From a virus (Duplodnaviria; Heunggongvirae; Uroviricota; Caudoviricetes): DNA of 13,931 nt. Below the pieces are notes generated by a model that saw only the letters and a list, made by a program, of their open reading frames with translations, made no database searches and had not been told where the DNA came from. Position 1 is the stretch's first letter. Every line of letters begins with the position of its first letter. Shown piece by piece: positions 3,402 through 13,931 of this stretch. The stretch lies in IMG/VR virus record IMGVR_UViG_2728369553_000003; one strand, written 5' to 3'. The position numbers were made by a program, and so were the translations under genes.

Positions 3402-3863
3402 TCATCGAAGGCATTGCGTCCTGATGTACTCCTGCAGGTAGTTAACCTGTGCGGTTATCCTGTCGATTCCACTTCGGAGACGGTAATAATTGAGTTCAGC
3501 ATCTGCTGTAAGTCCTGGGCTTTCTCCATCGCCCATGCCGCTGGCTCTGGTCGTTGATTTTGCACAGGTGGCGGCGACTTGCAGGCGCTTACGCCCAGAA
3601 GAAACATCAGCACGGAGACTTTCGATAGTCGCGTTAGCATCAGCAAGCTCCTTTGTGTATCTGGCGTCAAGTTCTGCTACGTCACGTTGACGCTTCTGCA
3701 TATCAGAGATAGTCGCCATAGCCGAATCTAATGCCATAGCATTCTCATCACGCTGCTTTTTGTATTCGATGGCTTTGCTGTGGTAATAATTTGCTGAACA
3801 GATAAAAGAACCAATGACAGTAACGAAGAATGCAGCGATAACCAGCTTATAGCTCAACTTCAT
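3402..3863 (-). CDS. Rz: Rz i-spanin
   Basis: N-terminal TM segment, then a coiled-coil region with strong similarity to lambda Rz (AQRD.NA..L..A.A.I.DMQ.RQRDVA.LDA.YTKELADA). Overlaps the 3' end of the endolysin gene. Confidence 0.9.
   Translation of the reverse strand: MKLSYKLVIAAFFVTVIGSFICSANYYHSKAIEYKKQRDENAMALDSAMATISDMQKRQRDVAELDARYTKELADANATIESLRADVSSGRKRLQVAATCAKSTTRASGMGDGESPGLTADAELNYYRLRSGIDRITAQVNYLQEYIRTQCLR
3455..3640 (-). CDS. Rz1: Rz1 o-spanin lipoprotein, embedded in the +1 frame of Rz
   Basis: ATG at 3638-3640 with a GGAG 8 nt upstream. Signal peptide with lipobox (LLGVSAC), then a proline-rich segment (KSPPPVQNQRPEPAAWAM) like lambda Rz1. The tracker start at 3670 is TTG. 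Confidence 0.75.
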   Translation of the reverse strand: MLTRLSKVSVLMFLLGVSACKSPPPVQNQRPEPAAWAMEKAQDLQQMLNSIITVSEVESTG

Positions 3864-4323
3864 TTACCACCCCGCCAGCCTCTTTGAATCGGGCAATCAG
3901 GTCACCGATTTTATGTTCATACTGACCGTAACCAGCGCCCGGCAGTGAAGCCCAGATATTGCTGCAACGATCGATAGCCTGACGAATATCGCCGCGATCA
4001 ATCATCGGTAAAGCGCCACGCTCTTTAATCTGCTGCAATGCCACAGCATCCTGGCTTTTTGGAGAGAAGTCTTTCAGCCCAAGCTGCTTGCGGTAAGCAT
4101 CCCACCAGCGTGAAAGAAGTTGATAACGGCCTGCAGCTGTTGATTTGAGTTTGGGGTTTAGCGTGACAAGTTTGCGAGGGTGATCGGAGTAATCAGTGAA
4201 GAGTTCACCACCGACAATAATATCATAACCGTGGTTACGTGTCGGTTGTCGCCCGTTATCCGTTCCTTCTGACCATGCCACCATATCGAGGAAAGCTTTA
4301 CGCTGAGGATTAAGATTTTGCAT
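3847..4323 (-). CDS. R: Endolysin, lambda R-type lytic transglycosylase
   Basis: 158 aa, near-identical over most of its length to lambda R as recalled (QRKAFLDM.AWSEGTDNGRQ.TRNHGYD.IVGGELFTDYSDHPRKLVTLNPKLKST.AGRYQLLSRWWDAYRKQLGLKDFSPKSQDAVALQQIKERGALPMIDRGDIRQAIDRCSNIWASLPGAGYGQ). Confidence 0.95.
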   Translation of the reverse strand: MQNLNPQRKAFLDMVAWSEGTDNGRQPTRNHGYDIIVGGELFTDYSDHPRKLVTLNPKLKSTAAGRYQLLSRWWDAYRKQLGLKDFSPKSQDAVALQQIKERGALPMIDRGDIRQAIDRCSNIWASLPGAGYGQYEHKIGDLIARFKEAGGVVNEVEL

Positions 4324-4615
4324 TTTTCACCCCTGTCAGTCGTTCCCAGAAGTACGTCAGTGCAACCGAACCCATCGCACCACTAATCCCCGCTGTCGCG
4401 AGAATCATGTAAATACTGAATCCACTTTCGATGCTGATCAGGCCACCAATAACACCGGTGAATCCTGATACCACTATCTGAGCCAGAGCATTTATCCAAC
4501 TCCACGTTGCTTTACTCTGCTTCACATCTATCAGGTAGCGGACCAGACCGCCCCAACCTGCGATGATCAGCAAAACGAGCCAGAACGCTCCAGCAAGATT
4601 CTCTTTTTCGTGCAT
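4310..4615 (-). CDS. Holin (class I-like, three predicted TM segments), not lambda S-like
   Basis: Three hydrophobic segments in about 100 aa, directly upstream of and overlapping the endolysin gene. The ORF is open up to the ATG at 4712-4714, but that start has no SD and adds 33 non-hydrophobic residues; the ATG at 4613-4615 gives a typical holin length. Start is uncertain. Confidence 0.7.
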   Translation of the reverse strand: MHEKENLAGAFWLVLLIIAGWGGLVRYLIDVKQSKATWSWINALAQIVVSGFTGVIGGLISIESGFSIYMILATAGISGAMGSVALTYFWERLTGVKNAKS

Positions 4616-4732
4616 ATGAATAGCCGCAGTTTCGCCTCCGACAGAAAATCGGAGCGTGAAATGATATGTTGATTTATTATTAATTCGAAAATTACATTCT
4701 AATTCATCAGGCATTGATGATTTTATAATAAT

Positions 4733-4755
4733 AAAGGCCGTTCGTTACGGCCTTT
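4733..4755 (-). terminator. Rho-independent terminator after the acidic moron gene
   Basis: Perfect 8-bp stem AAAGGCCG / CGGCCTTT with a 7-nt loop, flanked by A/T-rich runs on both sides, 12 nt downstream of the moron stop. Confidence 0.6.
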
Positions 4756-4766
4756 ATTATTGATAT

Positions 4767-5102
4767 TTATTTTACATCCCAAGGTAGTTCCTCAAGAGAG
4801 AAGACTAATTCATTATCAATGATTTCGTATTCTGCATAACCTTCAACCTCTCCTGAGAAGTTATTGTCAACGCATCCTTCATAATAGCTATATGGTGCTA
4901 TAAAGTGAAACCCATATTCATCTATCTCTGTGATTTCAAAATTGTAGTAATCGTAAGAATATCGAATATCATCATCAGAAATAGAACTAAGTACATAGTT
5001 ATTAAATTTATCGGAATGCTTAACGATAAGCTCTGACAACGCGTCAAGATTCTCTGGAGAGATATTTCCTAACGGTAATCTGTACTCAACGGCATTAATC
5101 AT
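4767..5102 (-). CDS. Hypothetical highly acidic 111-aa protein; moron between the Q-like gene/tR' and the holin
   Basis: ATG at 5100-5102 with a GGAGG 4 nt upstream. AT-rich. About 24 D/E against 5 K/R; no signal peptide or TM. Flanked by its own candidate promoter and terminator. Confidence 0.7.
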   Translation of the reverse strand: MINAVEYRLPLGNISPENLDALSELIVKHSDKFNNYVLSSISDDDIRYSYDYYNFEITEIDEYGFHFIAPYSYYEGCVDNNFSGEVEGYAEYEIIDNELVFSLEELPWDVK

Positions 5103-5128
5103 ACAACCTCCTTTTTAACTGATATGAG

Positions 5129-5157
5129 GTTATATAATGTGTTTCAGTACAAGTAAA
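5129..5157 (-). promoter_or_regulatory. Candidate sigma70 promoter for the acidic moron
   Basis: Minus strand TTTACT-17nt-TATAAC upstream of the moron SD. Overlaps the T-tract of the tR'-like terminator. Confidence 0.3.
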
Positions 5158-5182
5158 TAAAAACCCGCTCAACAGCGGGTTC
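5152..5182 (-). terminator. tR'-like rho-independent terminator downstream of the late promoter
   Basis: 9-bp stem AAACCCGCT / AGCGGGTTT with loop CAAC at 5161-5182, followed on the minus strand by a T-rich run, about 40-60 nt downstream of the predicted late transcription start. Confidence 0.55.
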
Positions 5183-5227
5183 GTGAAAATTATCAACGGC
5201 AGACATACAAAGCCCATCGTTGAGAAA

Positions 5228-9746: not shown

Positions 9747-10837
9747 TCACCCCCTGAATCCTGCCGGGATCTGGCTGTAGTCCACGTTGTCGTAACTGGC
9801 TTTGAAGTACGGGTCTTCGCGTTTTTCGGTGTACGTGCTGACGGACGGCGATAAGCGCAGGGAAAGCTCATCCCATTTTTCCCGCAGCTTCGACGGGCTG
9901 AGCACGTTACGGCACCAGAACGGATCGCGGCTGACGCGGCTGTACATCTCGCAGATTTGTTTGTGAGTACGACCATCCTGCACACACATCAGGCGAATTT
10001 CGTTTGCCCAGGCTGTCCAGTTCGGTTCTTTGGGACGAACCACCTCGCCGTCACATTCGGCGGCTTGCTCGTACAGGGCGATGATTTTTTTCCAGAGCCA
10101 CTGTGCGCAGGTCAAATCATCCTGCGTTCCCCACTGGCGCTTTTTAGGGCTGAATACAACCGCATCAGGATGGCGAGTTAAAAAATCCTGTTCATCCGTC
10201 TGCGTGTCCGGTTGCGAAGCGTCCGGACGAGAAGGTTTTTTATCTGACGGATCATGTTTTGATTTTACTGACGGATCCCCGCCAGATTCTGACGGGTGAA
10301 AACCCGCTTTTTTGCCAGATTTCNNNNNNNNNNCTCCTGTTCAGCCGTCTGCGTGTCCGGTTGCGAAGCGTCCGGACGAGAAGTTTTTTTATCTGACGGA
10401 TCATGTTTTGATTTTACTGACGGATCCCCGCCAGATTCTGACGGGTGAAAACCCGCTTTTTTGCCAGATTTCGACGCATCAAATTTTGACGGGTCAGATT
10501 TTGATGCGTCAGATTTTGACGGGTCAGAATCTGACAGTTGAGAAAATGCCGCTGCCTGAAGCTTCGCAACGTTAAGCTGATAAACATTCGACGCATTGCG
10601 GTTACCCTGGCGACGCGCCTTACGCGTTAACCAGCCTTCTGCTTCCAGCCGTGCGATAGCCGTCCTGACGGTACTCATCCCCGCGCCAATCTGACGGGCA
10701 ATAGTTTCAATTGATGGCCAGCACACACCTTCGTCATTACTGAAATCAGCCAGGCGGGCCATAATTGCCACGCTGGATAATTTCATGCCTGACGCAGCGC
10801 AACCATCCCATACATAGCCGGTTAATTTAGTGCTCAT
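9747..10837 (-). CDS. O-like replication initiator, apparently split by a 10-N gap and an unmerged 138-bp contig overlap
   Basis: N-terminal winged-helix domain (10561-10837), then a repeat-encoded SDPSK/SDASK linker, then a C-terminal domain (9747-10185). The tracker reports two ORFs (10265..10837 and 9747..10115, the latter with a TTG start). Collapsing the duplicated 138-bp copies restores one in-frame ORF of about 313 aa. Confidence 0.65.
10186..10472. repeat. 138-bp direct repeat (10186-10323 and 10335-10472) flanking a 10-N gap; probable unmerged contig overlap
   Basis: The copies are identical except for two positions (10195 T vs 10344 G; 10235 G vs 10384 T). The 149-nt offset breaks the frame as presented, but the frame is restored if one copy is removed. 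Confidence 0.7.
10391..10540. repeat. Iteron-like repeats inside the O-like gene (candidate origin of replication)
   Basis: Five tandem 15-bp units at 10464-10538 (consensus about TCAGATTTTGACGGG), plus spaced CTGACGG motifs at about 10393, 10417 and 10437. Lambda ori likewise lies in iterons within O. Confidence 0.5.
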
Positions 10838-11971: not shown

Positions 11972-12068
11972 ACGCCCTCCAAACTAAGTTTTATTAGATG
12001 CTAATTACAAATCTATCTTTGGTCAATAAAAACTAAGATTACTTAGCAATTCAAGAAATGGTGCTCCT
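11972..12068. promoter_or_regulatory. OR-like divergent control region with a PR-like promoter and CTAAG-based operator candidates
   Basis: Minus-strand TTGACC-17nt-TAGCAT (plus 11998-12026) upstream of the cro SD. Inverted repeat CTAAG-ATTA-CTTAG at 12033-12046 and a near-copy CTAAG-TTTT-ATTAG at 11984-11997. AACTAAG occurs at 11982 and 12031. Confidence 0.5.
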
Positions 12069-12695
12069 ATGGAAACGGTTGGTCAGCGTATAAAAGCTCT
12101 GAGAAGAGTTACCGGAACGTCCCAGAAAGAATTGGGTAAATTTTGTGGAGTAAGCGACGTTGCTGTGGGGTACTGGGAGAAAGACATCAATACCCCTGGT
12201 GGGGAGGCACTTTCGAAATTAGCGAAGTTCTTCAATACGTCAATAGATTACATTCTTTATGGTGCTGAGTTTGAAGGCAAACTCGTCACAAACATGCGCA
12301 GAGTTCCTGTAATATCGTGGGTTCAGGCTGGGCAGTTTACTGAGTGCAGGGCAGCAGAAGTGTTTAGTGAAGTGGACAAGTGGGTAGATACATCATTAAA
12401 GATTGGTGATAACTCATTTGCATTAGAGGTTAAAGGTGACTCCATGACTAACCCTAATGGCCTCCCAACAATACCAGAAGGCGCAACAGTGATTGTAGAT
12501 CCAGATGCAGAACCTCGTCATGGAAAAATAGTCATCGCTCGACTTGATGGAACAAACGAAGCTACAGTAAAAAAATTAGTCATCGATGGCCCTCAAAAGT
12601 TTTTAGTGCCATTAAATCCTCGGTATCCCAACATCCCTATCAATGGTAATTGCCTTATCATTGGTGTAGTCAAAGGAGTTCAATACGAACTCTAA
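12069..12695 (+). CDS. cI: cI-like prophage repressor (XRE HTH plus S24 LexA-type autopeptidase domain)
   Basis: N-terminal HTH (QKELGKFCGVSDVAVGYWE), Ala-Gly cleavage site (VQAGQF), catalytic Ser in GDSM and Lys in TVKKL. Divergent from cro. Confidence 0.9.
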   Translation: METVGQRIKALRRVTGTSQKELGKFCGVSDVAVGYWEKDINTPGGEALSKLAKFFNTSIDYILYGAEFEGKLVTNMRRVPVISWVQAGQFTECRAAEVFSEVDKWVDTSLKIGDNSFALEVKGDSMTNPNGLPTIPEGATVIVDPDAEPRHGKIVIARLDGTNEATVKKLVIDGPQKFLVPLNPRYPNIPINGNCLIIGVVKGVQYEL

Positions 12696-12777
12696 GACCT
12701 CTCTTCTCTAACTAAGGCACCGAACTAAGAAAAGTTTGGTGTTTTCTCTTGCCATAATAACTAAGTTAAGTTAGATT
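12692..12777 (+). promoter_or_regulatory. OL/pL-like region: three AACTAAG repeats and a TTGCCA-17-TAGATT promoter
   Basis: AACTAAG at 12710, 12723 and 12759; CTAAG also overlaps the cI stop at 12692. Candidate -35 TTGCCA (12749-12754) and -10 TAGATT (12772-12777), with one AACTAAG copy in the spacer. Confidence 0.45.
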
Positions 12778-12879
12778 TTATATCAAAGATAACGAACAGG
12801 CAGGACGCCCACGAAGTAGCCGCCGGTGGCGTATGAATGACCGGATGATTCGTTAAATACTATGTGTAAGAGAGCGCAA

Positions 12880-13083
12880 ATGAACCGTTATTTCACATGC
12901 TCGTTTTGTGGAGCAAACGAGCTGCAGGCAAAAAAAATCATCGCCAAAGGCGGAAAAGATGAAGTTGCTATCTGCTCTGAGTGCGTAGTCTTGTGTGTCG
13001 GGGCATTAATCAATATCAGCACAACTATTCAGTTCACACCAAATGAGAATGCGCCTTTAGATGCGCGGAAATCTGGAGGTTAA
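12880..13083 (+). CDS. Small ClpX-type C4 zinc-finger protein (67 aa)
   Basis: YFTCSFCG...KKIIAKGGKDEVAICSECVVLC matches the ClpX N-terminal zinc-binding domain pattern (CSFCG...ICDEC). ATG at 12880-12882 is preceded by AAGAGAG; the tracker start at 12862 lacks an SD. Confidence 0.6.
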   Translation: MNRYFTCSFCGANELQAKKIIAKGGKDEVAICSECVVLCVGALINISTTIQFTPNENAPLDARKSGG

Positions 13084-13091
13084 AGAACAAA

Positions 13092-13367
13092 ATGAAAGTC
13101 CAGATTTTAAACAATAGTGGTGAAGTCGTTTGGTCATACGACATAGCCGCTCCTGTAGATCAGAGCGGCGATAGCTGGACCAATGGGAAACATCAGATTA
13201 TGGCTGGAGTTGTGTTCTCTTTACGCCGTGCTTTAGAACAGGCTGAAGTCTTTCCATCAGACCCTGAATGGAAATGGCCTTTTTCTATTTGTCCAAATTC
13301 GGAGAGTACATTTCAGAAAATTGGTCAGAAAGTCGCACTCGAAGAGCATCAGCCAACTGTTTCCTGA
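13092..13367 (+). CDS. Hypothetical 91-aa protein
   Basis: ATG at 13092-13094 with a GGAGG 12 nt upstream, 8 nt after the previous stop. Its 3' end overlaps a convergent minus-strand ORF by 83 nt, so its true extent is uncertain. Confidence 0.4.
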   Translation: MKVQILNNSGEVVWSYDIAAPVDQSGDSWTNGKHQIMAGVVFSLRRALEQAEVFPSDPEWKWPFSICPNSESTFQKIGQKVALEEHQPTVS

Positions 13368-13530
13368 TTTTTTCAGGTAACTCGTCGGCATCGCAGAAAC
13401 AACAACGCTCGATCATGTTGAAAGCCGATTCGTAGAACTGTTTTTGCTGAGTGTCGCTGAGACAGGAAAAGAGCGACGTTACGATGATTTTATTAATTGC
13501 ATTATCAAGTTCTTTTTCATCAAAAGTCAT
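13285..13530 (-). CDS. Hypothetical 81-aa protein (convergent to the pL-side genes)
   Basis: ATG at 13528-13530 with an AAGGA 7 nt upstream. Helical-looking sequence with a CCFC motif. Confidence 0.45.
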   Translation of the reverse strand: MTFDEKELDNAINKIIVTSLFSCLSDTQQKQFYESAFNMIERCCFCDADELPEKIRKQLADALRVRLSDQFSEMYSPNLDK

Positions 13531-13909
13531 TTGATTTTCCTTTTATGTATACGGGCTTAAAAGGATACCACCGAGCCTGAAGTGGTGAAAAGACAGGCAC
13601 ATAACAGCTAAGTATTTTCAACCAGAGAGAATCCTTAGCGTTGTGGTGAATGCGGCTCAGCGCACGCGGGTTAAGGTTGAGGCTGACAGTCGACCTTCTG
13701 TGGATACCCACCCGTCTGGTGTGCAACCTTCGCCAGACACCGGGAGGCACCCGGAACCACAACTTTATGCTGTGTGTAGTCTTGACGGTACCAGTTTGTA
13801 CCCTTGCTTCCGGCTGGTACCATCCTTTTTACAAAACAGAGAAGTGATCTTACCCAGCAATAGTGGACACGCGGCTAAGTGAGTAAACTCTCAGTCAGAG
13901 GTGACTCAC

Positions 13910-13931
13910 ATGACAAAAACAGTATCAACCA
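13910..13931 (+). CDS. 5' end of an unidentified CDS (MTKTVST...), continuing beyond the window
   Basis: ATG at 13910-13912 with a GAGGTGA 5 nt upstream; only 7 codons are visible. Confidence 0.35.

Follow-up and report, generated by a model that had tools for sequence, protein, structure and literature searches.

Why should a temperate phage encode, as the first gene behind its repressor, a free-standing zinc finger of the type found at the N-terminus of ClpX? The question is raised by IMG/VR virus record IMGVR_UViG_2728369553_000003, a stretch of 13,931 nucleotides (nt) of caudoviricete DNA (hereafter the window) that comprises the early and late-regulatory part of a lambdoid, e14-like Escherichia coli prophage. 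We found that the zinc-finger gene is genuine and under purifying selection, that its product has the predicted fold of the ClpX zinc-binding domain (ZBD), and that its setting is consistent with early expression under repressor control. The reading that we favor, with a probability of about 0.35, is that the protein mimics the ClpX ZBD and damps ZBD-dependent proteolysis by ClpXP.

The open reading frame (ORF) at 12862-13083 on the plus strand, which translates as MCKRAQMNRYFTCSFCG...CSEC..., carries a CSFCG...CSEC signature. An earlier, sequence-only reading had pointed to this pattern (as CSFCG...C.EC), and the observation was upheld by a match of the protein to Pfam family PF06689 (zf-C4_ClpX; E = 1.4e-10, 41.3 bits against a gathering cut-off of 27). 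The 96 homologous genes in the loci that we fetched fell into four subtypes: A, the type of the window, with 67 residues; B, the type of Salmonella phage 118970_sal3, with 57 to 112 residues; C, the F1055 type, with 61 to 66 residues; and D, with 121 residues, which includes the copy in E. coli Nissle 1917. Subtypes B, C, and D matched PF06689 with 26 to 37 bits. The zinc ligands C7, C10, C32, and C35 (CxxC...CxxC) were invariant across 28 aligned stand-alone homologues. The start codon taken by the sequence-only reading, the ATG at 12862, probably lies 18 nt too early. Translation most likely begins at the second ATG, position 12880, because the NCBI prokaryotic annotation pipeline (PGAP) begins its 67-residue coding sequence there (WP_001083098.1, named "ClpX C4-type zinc finger protein"), because all four subtypes open with MN..[YF]TCSFCG, and because a Shine-Dalgarno-like GAGAG, GGAG, or GAGG lies 5 to 8 nt upstream of that start; the ATG at 12862 was found in subtype A only.

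The same reading had proposed a ClpX N-terminal ZBD lacking the AAA+ module, and this proposal was borne out both by sequence and by predicted structure; the fold prediction that it had itself named as a possible refutation thus went in its favor. The two NCBIfam ClpX equivalogs scored only 25.8 and 22.7 bits against cut-offs of 359 and 371, over the N-terminal 40 residues, so that no AAA+ module was detected. The best sequence matches in the PDB were the E. coli ClpX ZBD entries 2ds5, 2ds8, and 1ovx, aligned with a single three-residue insertion. An AlphaFold model of the window protein, built on the 28 stand-alone homologues, gave a predicted local distance difference test score (pLDDT) of 79 to 93 by block for the ZBD core (residues 4-49), and the tail (residues 50-67) was predicted to be disordered (pLDDT of about 50). 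When this model was compared with the PDB by Foldseek, the top matches were the ClpX ZBD structures 2ds5, 2ds6, and 2ds8 (probability 1.0, template modeling score 0.81-0.84, root-mean-square deviation 1.4-1.6 Å over 41-45 residues), and apart from ClpX ZBD structures no match was obtained at E<1. The predicted fold is that of a treble-clef zinc ribbon plus helix, as in the ClpX ZBD, and by analogy with that domain the protein most likely dimerizes. Its identity to the host ClpX domain is about 35%, and the two split long ago. We also considered a membrane helix, as residues 35-53 of the window subtype reach about 1.7 on the Kyte-Doolittle scale (hand calculation); the same helix is polar or charged in subtypes B and D, and we rejected the candidate as a trait of the family.

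Over the first 45 codons, compared between subtypes, the ratio of nonsynonymous to synonymous substitution (dN/dS) was 0.10-0.25 with a median of 0.135, dN was 0.15-0.23, and synonymous sites were saturated. In addition, the identical subtype-A protein was encoded by six distinct coding sequences. Because synonymous sites are saturated where dN is low and a single protein is specified in six ways, the zinc-finger gene is genuine and under purifying selection. These data bear directly on the idea that the ORF is a decaying, functionless fragment of a captured clpX, for which one could cite the frameshifted copies in some E. coli genomes and the common, precise absences of the gene. Such a fragment is extremely improbable in view of the strong purifying selection that acts across subtypes, synonymous sites being saturated, the identity of only about 35% to host ClpX, the gene's own ribosome-binding site and conserved start, and its wide distribution in two genera, including inducible phages. 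Of 5,426 complete E. coli genomes, 98 carried subtype A and 131 carried a relative of some kind. The protein matches PHROG 5259/20296, and the family is thus already catalogued, under the PGAP name and in the PHROGs; what is new here is a known domain that is free-standing, phage-borne, and predicted to be expressed early. Within the library that was searched in full text, we found no functional work on ClpX-type fingers that stand alone in phages and no paper on a phage ClpXP inhibitor, and PADLOC gave no defense-system match.

The regulatory setting was examined from the repressor gene onward (Table 1). The repressor is of the LexA/UmuD type and is therefore expected to be SOS-cleavable. A terminator-like hairpin parts its gene from the promoter that follows; this hairpin overlaps two AACTAAG repeats and was missed by a simple terminator scan, and in phage SfV a terminator is annotated at the equivalent place after the repressor. 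The pL-like promoter named by the sequence-only reading was recovered by a promoter scan and is overlapped by an operator-like AACTAAGTTnnnTTAGAT site, which recurs at the divergent cro/cI promoter region. More extensively, the 18-nt element AACTAAGTTAAGTTAGAT (12759-12776) matches AACTAAGTTTTATTAGAT in that divergent region, and the OR-side counterparts of the operator-like sites lie at 11982-11999 and 12026-12046. AACTAAG occurs six times in the window, compared with 1.25 expected (none of 200 shuffles reached six), and five of the six copies fall in the two intergenic regions that flank the repressor gene. These features indicate a putative early leftward promoter under repressor control. 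With operator-like repeats over the promoter, an SOS-cleavable repressor, and a terminator-like hairpin ahead of the promoter, the zinc-finger gene would be expected to come on as the first leftward early gene upon repressor loss, and we infer early, repressor-controlled expression on these grounds.

Between promoter and gene lies a conserved RNA leader, which is described below. The zinc-finger start was situated 25 to 39 nt past this leader in every locus with a homologue (25 nt in the window; in frameshifted copies, 75 nt to the first aligned residue). Salmonella phages 118970_sal3 and F1055, Nissle 1917, and other prophages all have the gene as the first after a CI-like repressor, and its position was conserved in every related locus examined. 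Among prophage loci of E. coli and Salmonella, more than 80 have it as the first gene behind a repressor-controlled pL-like promoter. The sequence-only reading was thus right to place it first after a repressor-controlled promoter; its further remark that such a position is unusual did not stand. When 90 loci were picked solely by the invariant 28-nt core of the leader and the first ORF after the core was read, a 68-residue protein (PHROG 1744) was encountered in 16, the window's 91-residue protein in 11 (there directly behind the leader), the zinc finger in 10, and a diverse set in the rest. SfV, ZF40, mEp460, and ST64B have other genes, or none annotated, in the slot. Lambda and HK022 hold rex, sieB, and nun in a comparable place, and the hypervariable slot matches this site of accessory or exclusion genes. 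A link to a single immunity type was tried and rejected, as the zinc finger occurred with nine repressor clusters, six of which were also seen without it. The variable first ORF, the nine repressor clusters, and the co-variation of adjacent genes only point to an accessory gene that is optional and sits in a hypervariable slot.

According to the reading that we favor, the zinc-finger gene would be switched on first in the leftward operon once the SOS-cleavable repressor is lost. The phage ZBD would then intercept ligands of the ClpX ZBD, such as the tails of SspB- or RssB-type adaptors and N-degron substrates (replication initiators, transposases); alternatively, it might pair with or cap the ClpX N-domains. 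By either route ZBD-dependent ClpXP proteolysis would be selectively damped and direct ssrA-type degradation spared, a function that would resemble that of small phage modulators of host AAA+ proteases. A decoy of this kind, which the sequence-only reading had put forward, is plausible because free ClpX ZBD, supplied in trans, inhibits the RssB-mediated breakdown of sigma-S in vitro (PMC7226468). That competitor is likewise a ZBD without the motor, and its block of RssB delivery is the activity proposed for the phage protein; it is an experimental host fragment, however, whereas the phage protein is a natural one whose ligands are presumed by analogy. Docking of SspB, RssB, trigger factor, and lambda O on the ClpX ZBD makes use of a hydrophobic pocket with F16 and I46 among its residues (PMC7804408). 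In the phage family, F9 (the equivalent of F16 and the pocket phenylalanine of CSFCG) was invariant, and the K-[IL]-[IV]-A strand of the ligand surface was kept. The retention of both elements, together with the fact that the only characterized relatives are ClpX ZBDs, speaks in favor of a role in the ClpX pathway.

The distribution of the finger beyond the lambdoid prophages also bears on this proposal. An exhaustive phmmer search yielded 154 representatives at E<=1e-3. Most of these are short and carry between one and four ClpX-type fingers in tandem, and no more than two were of ClpX-like length (416 and 465 residues). At least four phage families with the finger are present among the PHROGs (5259, 20296, 12435, and 6797), and BFVD provided more stand-alone phage examples, e.g., from Pseudomonas phage PP9W2. 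Three distant relatives had readable contigs, and all three were located in early regions of temperate phages. The first, a 65-residue finger, lies at the end of a Mu-like prophage that encodes homologues of MuA and MuB (GCA_047973035.1, JBKEBF010000007.1, excerpt 4425-5198), 76 nt downstream of the repressor gene and on the same strand; the second follows an S24 repressor in another lambdoid prophage; and the third is within the rightward early operon of another temperate phage. Mu needs ClpX for transpososome remodeling and repressor turnover, its repressor and transposase being ClpX clients, and for this reason the Mu-like placement is suggestive. The recurrence of the finger in phage types that depend on ClpX (Mu, and lambda through O) counts in favor of the mimic. 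As an observation on architecture, metagenomic proteins contained two to four tandem ClpX-type fingers joined by Pro- or Gln-rich linkers, and one protein of 2,505 residues had 22 matched stretches. These tandem-finger proteins represent an uncharacterized repeat architecture of the domain, and the natural proteins with two to four fingers hint at dimerization of the finger, although they are only suggestive in this respect.

Several points weigh against a docking-domain mimic. ZBD-ligand affinities are weak, so that a simple decoy would have to be strongly expressed. Where ClpX has I46, members of the family have A, V, I, K, T, or L. The family also has invariants of its own that are missing from ClpX (a three-residue AKGG.. 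insertion in the β-hairpin, Ala in place of Y34, and a hydrophobic CVxxLIN helix), and these could mean a partner other than ClpX ligands. A link of the gene to the replication module or any other distal module was sought and rejected, as only physically adjacent genes were enriched. Frameshifted copies, in which a 1-nt deletion leaves a 35-residue product, occurred in several E. coli lineages including an ST131 strain, and indicate that the gene is dispensable and decays in some resident prophages. Finally, sigma factors with a fused PF06689 domain are known (PMC11119718), and such fusions, together with the tandem-repeat proteins, imply that the domain can serve as a generic interaction module. 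In a separate comparison, the N-terminus of the window's replication protein, the gene for which contains an interrupting run of N, had no evident similarity to the N-terminal degron of lambda O.

The same observations lend substance to a different view, in which the protein is a small dimerizing or peptide-binding scaffold against a target outside ClpXP, such as a host defense protein, a cell-division protein, or another phage regulator, and its likeness to ClpX reflects common fold ancestry rather than a shared pathway. The family-specific invariants and the loop insertion missing from ClpX would suit such a scaffold, as would the many non-ClpX architectures (one to four tandem copies, the 2505-residue protein with 22 copies, the sigma-factor fusions), the many unrelated accessory genes that occupy the same slot, and the variable C-terminal tails. 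Set against this are the nearest structures and sequences of known function, all of which are ClpX ZBDs, the maintenance of the phenylalanine and β-strand of the ZBD ligand surface, and the finger's repeated occurrence in early regions of Mu-like and lambdoid phages, which suits phages with ClpX-linked biology. We regard the scaffold as possible, if on balance doubtful.

The C-terminal tails raise the further possibility that the protein is a recruiter or adaptor for ClpXP, with the ZBD-like module docked on ClpX (as a heterodimer with the N-domain, or on the ring) and the tail or the 121-residue form delivering a host or phage protein for degradation. Long forms (PHROG 20296, 112-121 residues) do add about 65 residues after the ZBD, several of the otherwise variable tails share a terminal [IV]x[FV]..AP motif, and SPO1 Gp53 is a precedent for an adaptor-like phage protein (PMC6873191). 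The window protein, however, is a short form with a tail predicted to be disordered, and the tails are poorly conserved and without a recognizable domain: no Pfam domain was matched by the tails or the long form, and the AlphaFold model of the 121-residue form was unusable past residue 51 (pLDDT <50). ClpX ZBD dimers are, moreover, stable, which makes an exchange of subunits doubtful. A recruiter is decidedly unlikely in our estimation.

The leader that precedes the gene was far more conserved than the neighboring genes, being 96-100% identical where the zinc-finger protein was only 69-75% identical. Its 28-nt core, AACAGGCAGGACGCCCACGAAGTAGCCG, was invariant, and the whole leader was 83-100% identical across phages of many genera. 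It was found in about 1,490 of the 5,426 E. coli genomes (about a quarter of the complete genomes), mostly without the zinc-finger gene, and in 54 phage records from at least 10 genera, with hosts that included Escherichia, Salmonella (ST64B), Shigella (SfII, SfIV, SfV), Klebsiella, Citrobacter, Yersinia, Pectobacterium (ZF40), Pantoea, Providencia, and others; phiNP and mEp460 also carry it. In six of six loci where the annotation was read (SfV, ST64B, ZF40, mEp460, F1055, and 118970_sal3), the leader lay just 3' of the CI-like repressor gene. A covariance model (CM) gave one hit per locus with 86-97 bits, and a search with filters off revealed no second copy on the pR side. In E. coli Nissle 1917 (NZ_CP148105.1, locus excerpt 3501-3866), the 121-residue long form (PHROG 20296) occupies the equivalent position, after a LexA-family repressor and this leader (CM score of 96.7 bits).

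The secondary structure of the leader was visible through covariation only, as the minimum free energy of the single sequence was no better than that of shuffles (z = -0.49). At P3, pair 37:54 was GC in 37, UA in 14, CG in 27, and AU in 6 of 84 variants, and pair 39:52 likewise appeared as UA, GC, AU, and CG; at P1, pair 4:65 switched between AU and GC. In an alignment of 30 sequences, 97.2% of the cells were paired, compared with 84.1% after shuffling (0 of 500 shuffles reached the observed value) and 23-47% with slid partners, and seven pairs had changed on both sides. Its position, which begins 5-10 nt past the predicted pL start, argues for an RNA of the plus strand, although counts of wobble and A-C pairs fail to discriminate between strands. 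We consider the leader a candidate cis-acting RNA of the early leftward operon. A mini-ORF within it (MNDRMIR, 12834-12857) was rejected, since ST64B-type variants have lost the start codon. No match to the leader was found in Rfam, and a literature search for its sequence returned nothing.

One hypothesis, drawn by analogy, is that the leader acts as an RNA antiterminator like put of HK022. This idea would fit because no N gene is recognizable and because terminators are annotated around SfV orf33. Like the leader, HK022 put is a structured RNA of about 70 nt located a few nt after the pL start in lambdoid phages, and here no N homologue was recognized. The two differ in that the leader has no sequence or CM similarity to put and is present as a single copy per phage, as opposed to putL plus putR. 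Membership of the leader in the HK022 put family was accordingly tried and rejected: blastn detected no similarity to the HK022 immunity region, the CM gave no hit in HK022, and Rfam gave none.

The leader also invites comparison of the zinc-finger protein with HK022 Nun and lambda N, which share its map position; the HK022 gene, too, follows a 5' RNA element of the pL transcript (putL). The protein might then be a regulator that binds nucleic acid or RNA polymerase (acting as antiterminator, terminator factor, or zinc-finger activator of the Ogr type), perhaps together with the leader RNA. Its place as the first gene after pL, directly behind a structured leader, and the failure to recognize an N homologue among the window ORFs scanned are compatible with such a role. 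In contrast to Nun and N, however, the protein lacks an arginine-rich motif, has a net charge of about +1 and a different fold, and matches PF06689 alone rather than the N, Nun, or Ogr families. Furthermore, the leader occurs mostly in phages without the zinc finger and thus does not need it. We judge a regulator of this kind to be very unlikely.

Comparison of the phage protein with known systems brings out what would be distinctive in a ZBD mimic. With the E. coli ClpX ZBD (1OVX, 2DS5-2DS8) it has in common the C4 motif, the predicted fold, the pocket phenylalanine, and the K-L/I-I/V-A strand. It differs in being free-standing, without linker or AAA+ module, in the three-residue hairpin insertion and the Ala for Y34, in a far more hydrophobic helix, and in being phage-encoded under repressor control. 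Lambda CIII acts on FtsH, and T4 PinA and T7 Gp4.5 act on Lon. SPO1 Gp53 acts on ClpCP (PMC6873191), and lambda RexB, encoded beside cI, is described as preventing lambda O degradation (PMC51794 and PMC28068, as cited in PMC11077077). All five are small proteins of early or immunity regions that tune host proteolysis, as the phage ZBD would under the favored reading, and RexB and CIII are likewise encoded left of cI; none, however, has sequence or fold kinship to the phage ZBD, and none copies a protease domain.

ClpXP governs lambda O turnover, Mu transpososome remodeling, Mu repressor stability, and the clearance of LexA fragments, as well as host stress responses via sigma-S (RssB) and ssrA (SspB). 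If the docking-domain mimic is real, it would represent a new phage route for manipulating host proteolysis, in which a protease's own domain is copied, and it would offer a compact, genetically encoded tool for shutting off adaptor-dependent ClpXP degradation with the motor untouched. E. coli Nissle 1917 would be a convenient natural host for experiments. The leader RNA, for its part, may explain terminator read-through in the early leftward operon of phages without a recognized N homologue. A broader proposal is that the docking domain of host ClpX recurs as a copy in temperate phages of several types (lambdoid, Mu-like, and others), where it would be a natural domain-mimic anti-adaptor that selectively reprograms ClpXP targets in the lysis-lysogeny decision, the lambdoid copy standing behind a previously undescribed leader that is perhaps an antiterminator unrelated to put; in this general form the proposal is speculative and rather unlikely.

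Table 1. Features of the repressor-proximal region of the window (positions are those of the window).
Feature	Position	Strand	Basis
CI-like repressor gene, HTH_3 and Peptidase_S24 domains	12069..12695	+	Pfam; PGAP "LexA family protein"
OL-like operator cluster: AACTAAG at 12710, 12723, and 12759; 12759-12776 is AACTAAGTTAAGTTAGAT	12710..12776	+	Repeat comparison
Terminator-like hairpin and U-run directly after the repressor gene	12714..12745	+	RNA fold, free energy -15.1 kcal/mol, z = -2.9
pL-like sigma-70 promoter, TTGCCA-17-TAGATT	12749..12777	+	Promoter scan, 9/12 matches
Structured leader of the pL transcript, 68 nt (candidate)	12789..12856	+	Conservation, covariation, CM
Leader P1	12792-12796 with 12849-12853	+	Covariation
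Leader P2, invariant	12799-12801 with 12807-12809	+	Pairing
Leader P3	12823-12827 with 12840-12844	+	Covariation
Shine-Dalgarno-like AAGAGAG, 5 nt before ATG 12880	12868..12874	+	Sequence; GGAG/GAGG counterparts in other subtypes
Stand-alone ClpX-type zinc-finger coding sequence, 67 residues	12880..13083	+	Pfam, PGAP, AlphaFold, Foldseek, dN/dS
Second gene of the leftward operon, 91 residues, PHROG 3195; in some phages directly after the leader	13092..13367	+	PHROG match, slot survey

The remainder of the window has the layout of a lambdoid prophage. Its minus strand encodes terminase, lysis genes, the Q antiterminator, a nin-type block, a replication gene, the CII-like YmfL, and cro, and its plus strand encodes the LexA/UmuD-type repressor, the zinc-finger protein, and the 91-residue protein. 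The last of these genes (13092-13367, plus strand; PHROG 3195, E = 8e-64) overlaps by 83 nt a convergent ORF at 13285-13530 on the minus strand (PHROG 3311, E = 3e-54); both were enriched beside the zinc-finger gene, and PGAP calls the plus-strand one only. A locus of E. coli ECONIH5 was 100% identical to the window's prophage sequence and continues with xisE, a truncated integrase gene, and icd. Positions 13845-13931 of the window are the left end of an IS3-family element (transposase ATG at 13911), which interrupts the left arm of the prophage inside an ORF annotated by PGAP as a frameshifted hypothetical gene in ECONIH5; that strain's identical prophage is without the insertion. A run of 10 N at 10324-10333 falls in an iteron-like tandem repeat (coding for DPSKSDASKS) of the replication-initiator gene, which reads as broken, and this run suggests a scaffolded draft assembly.

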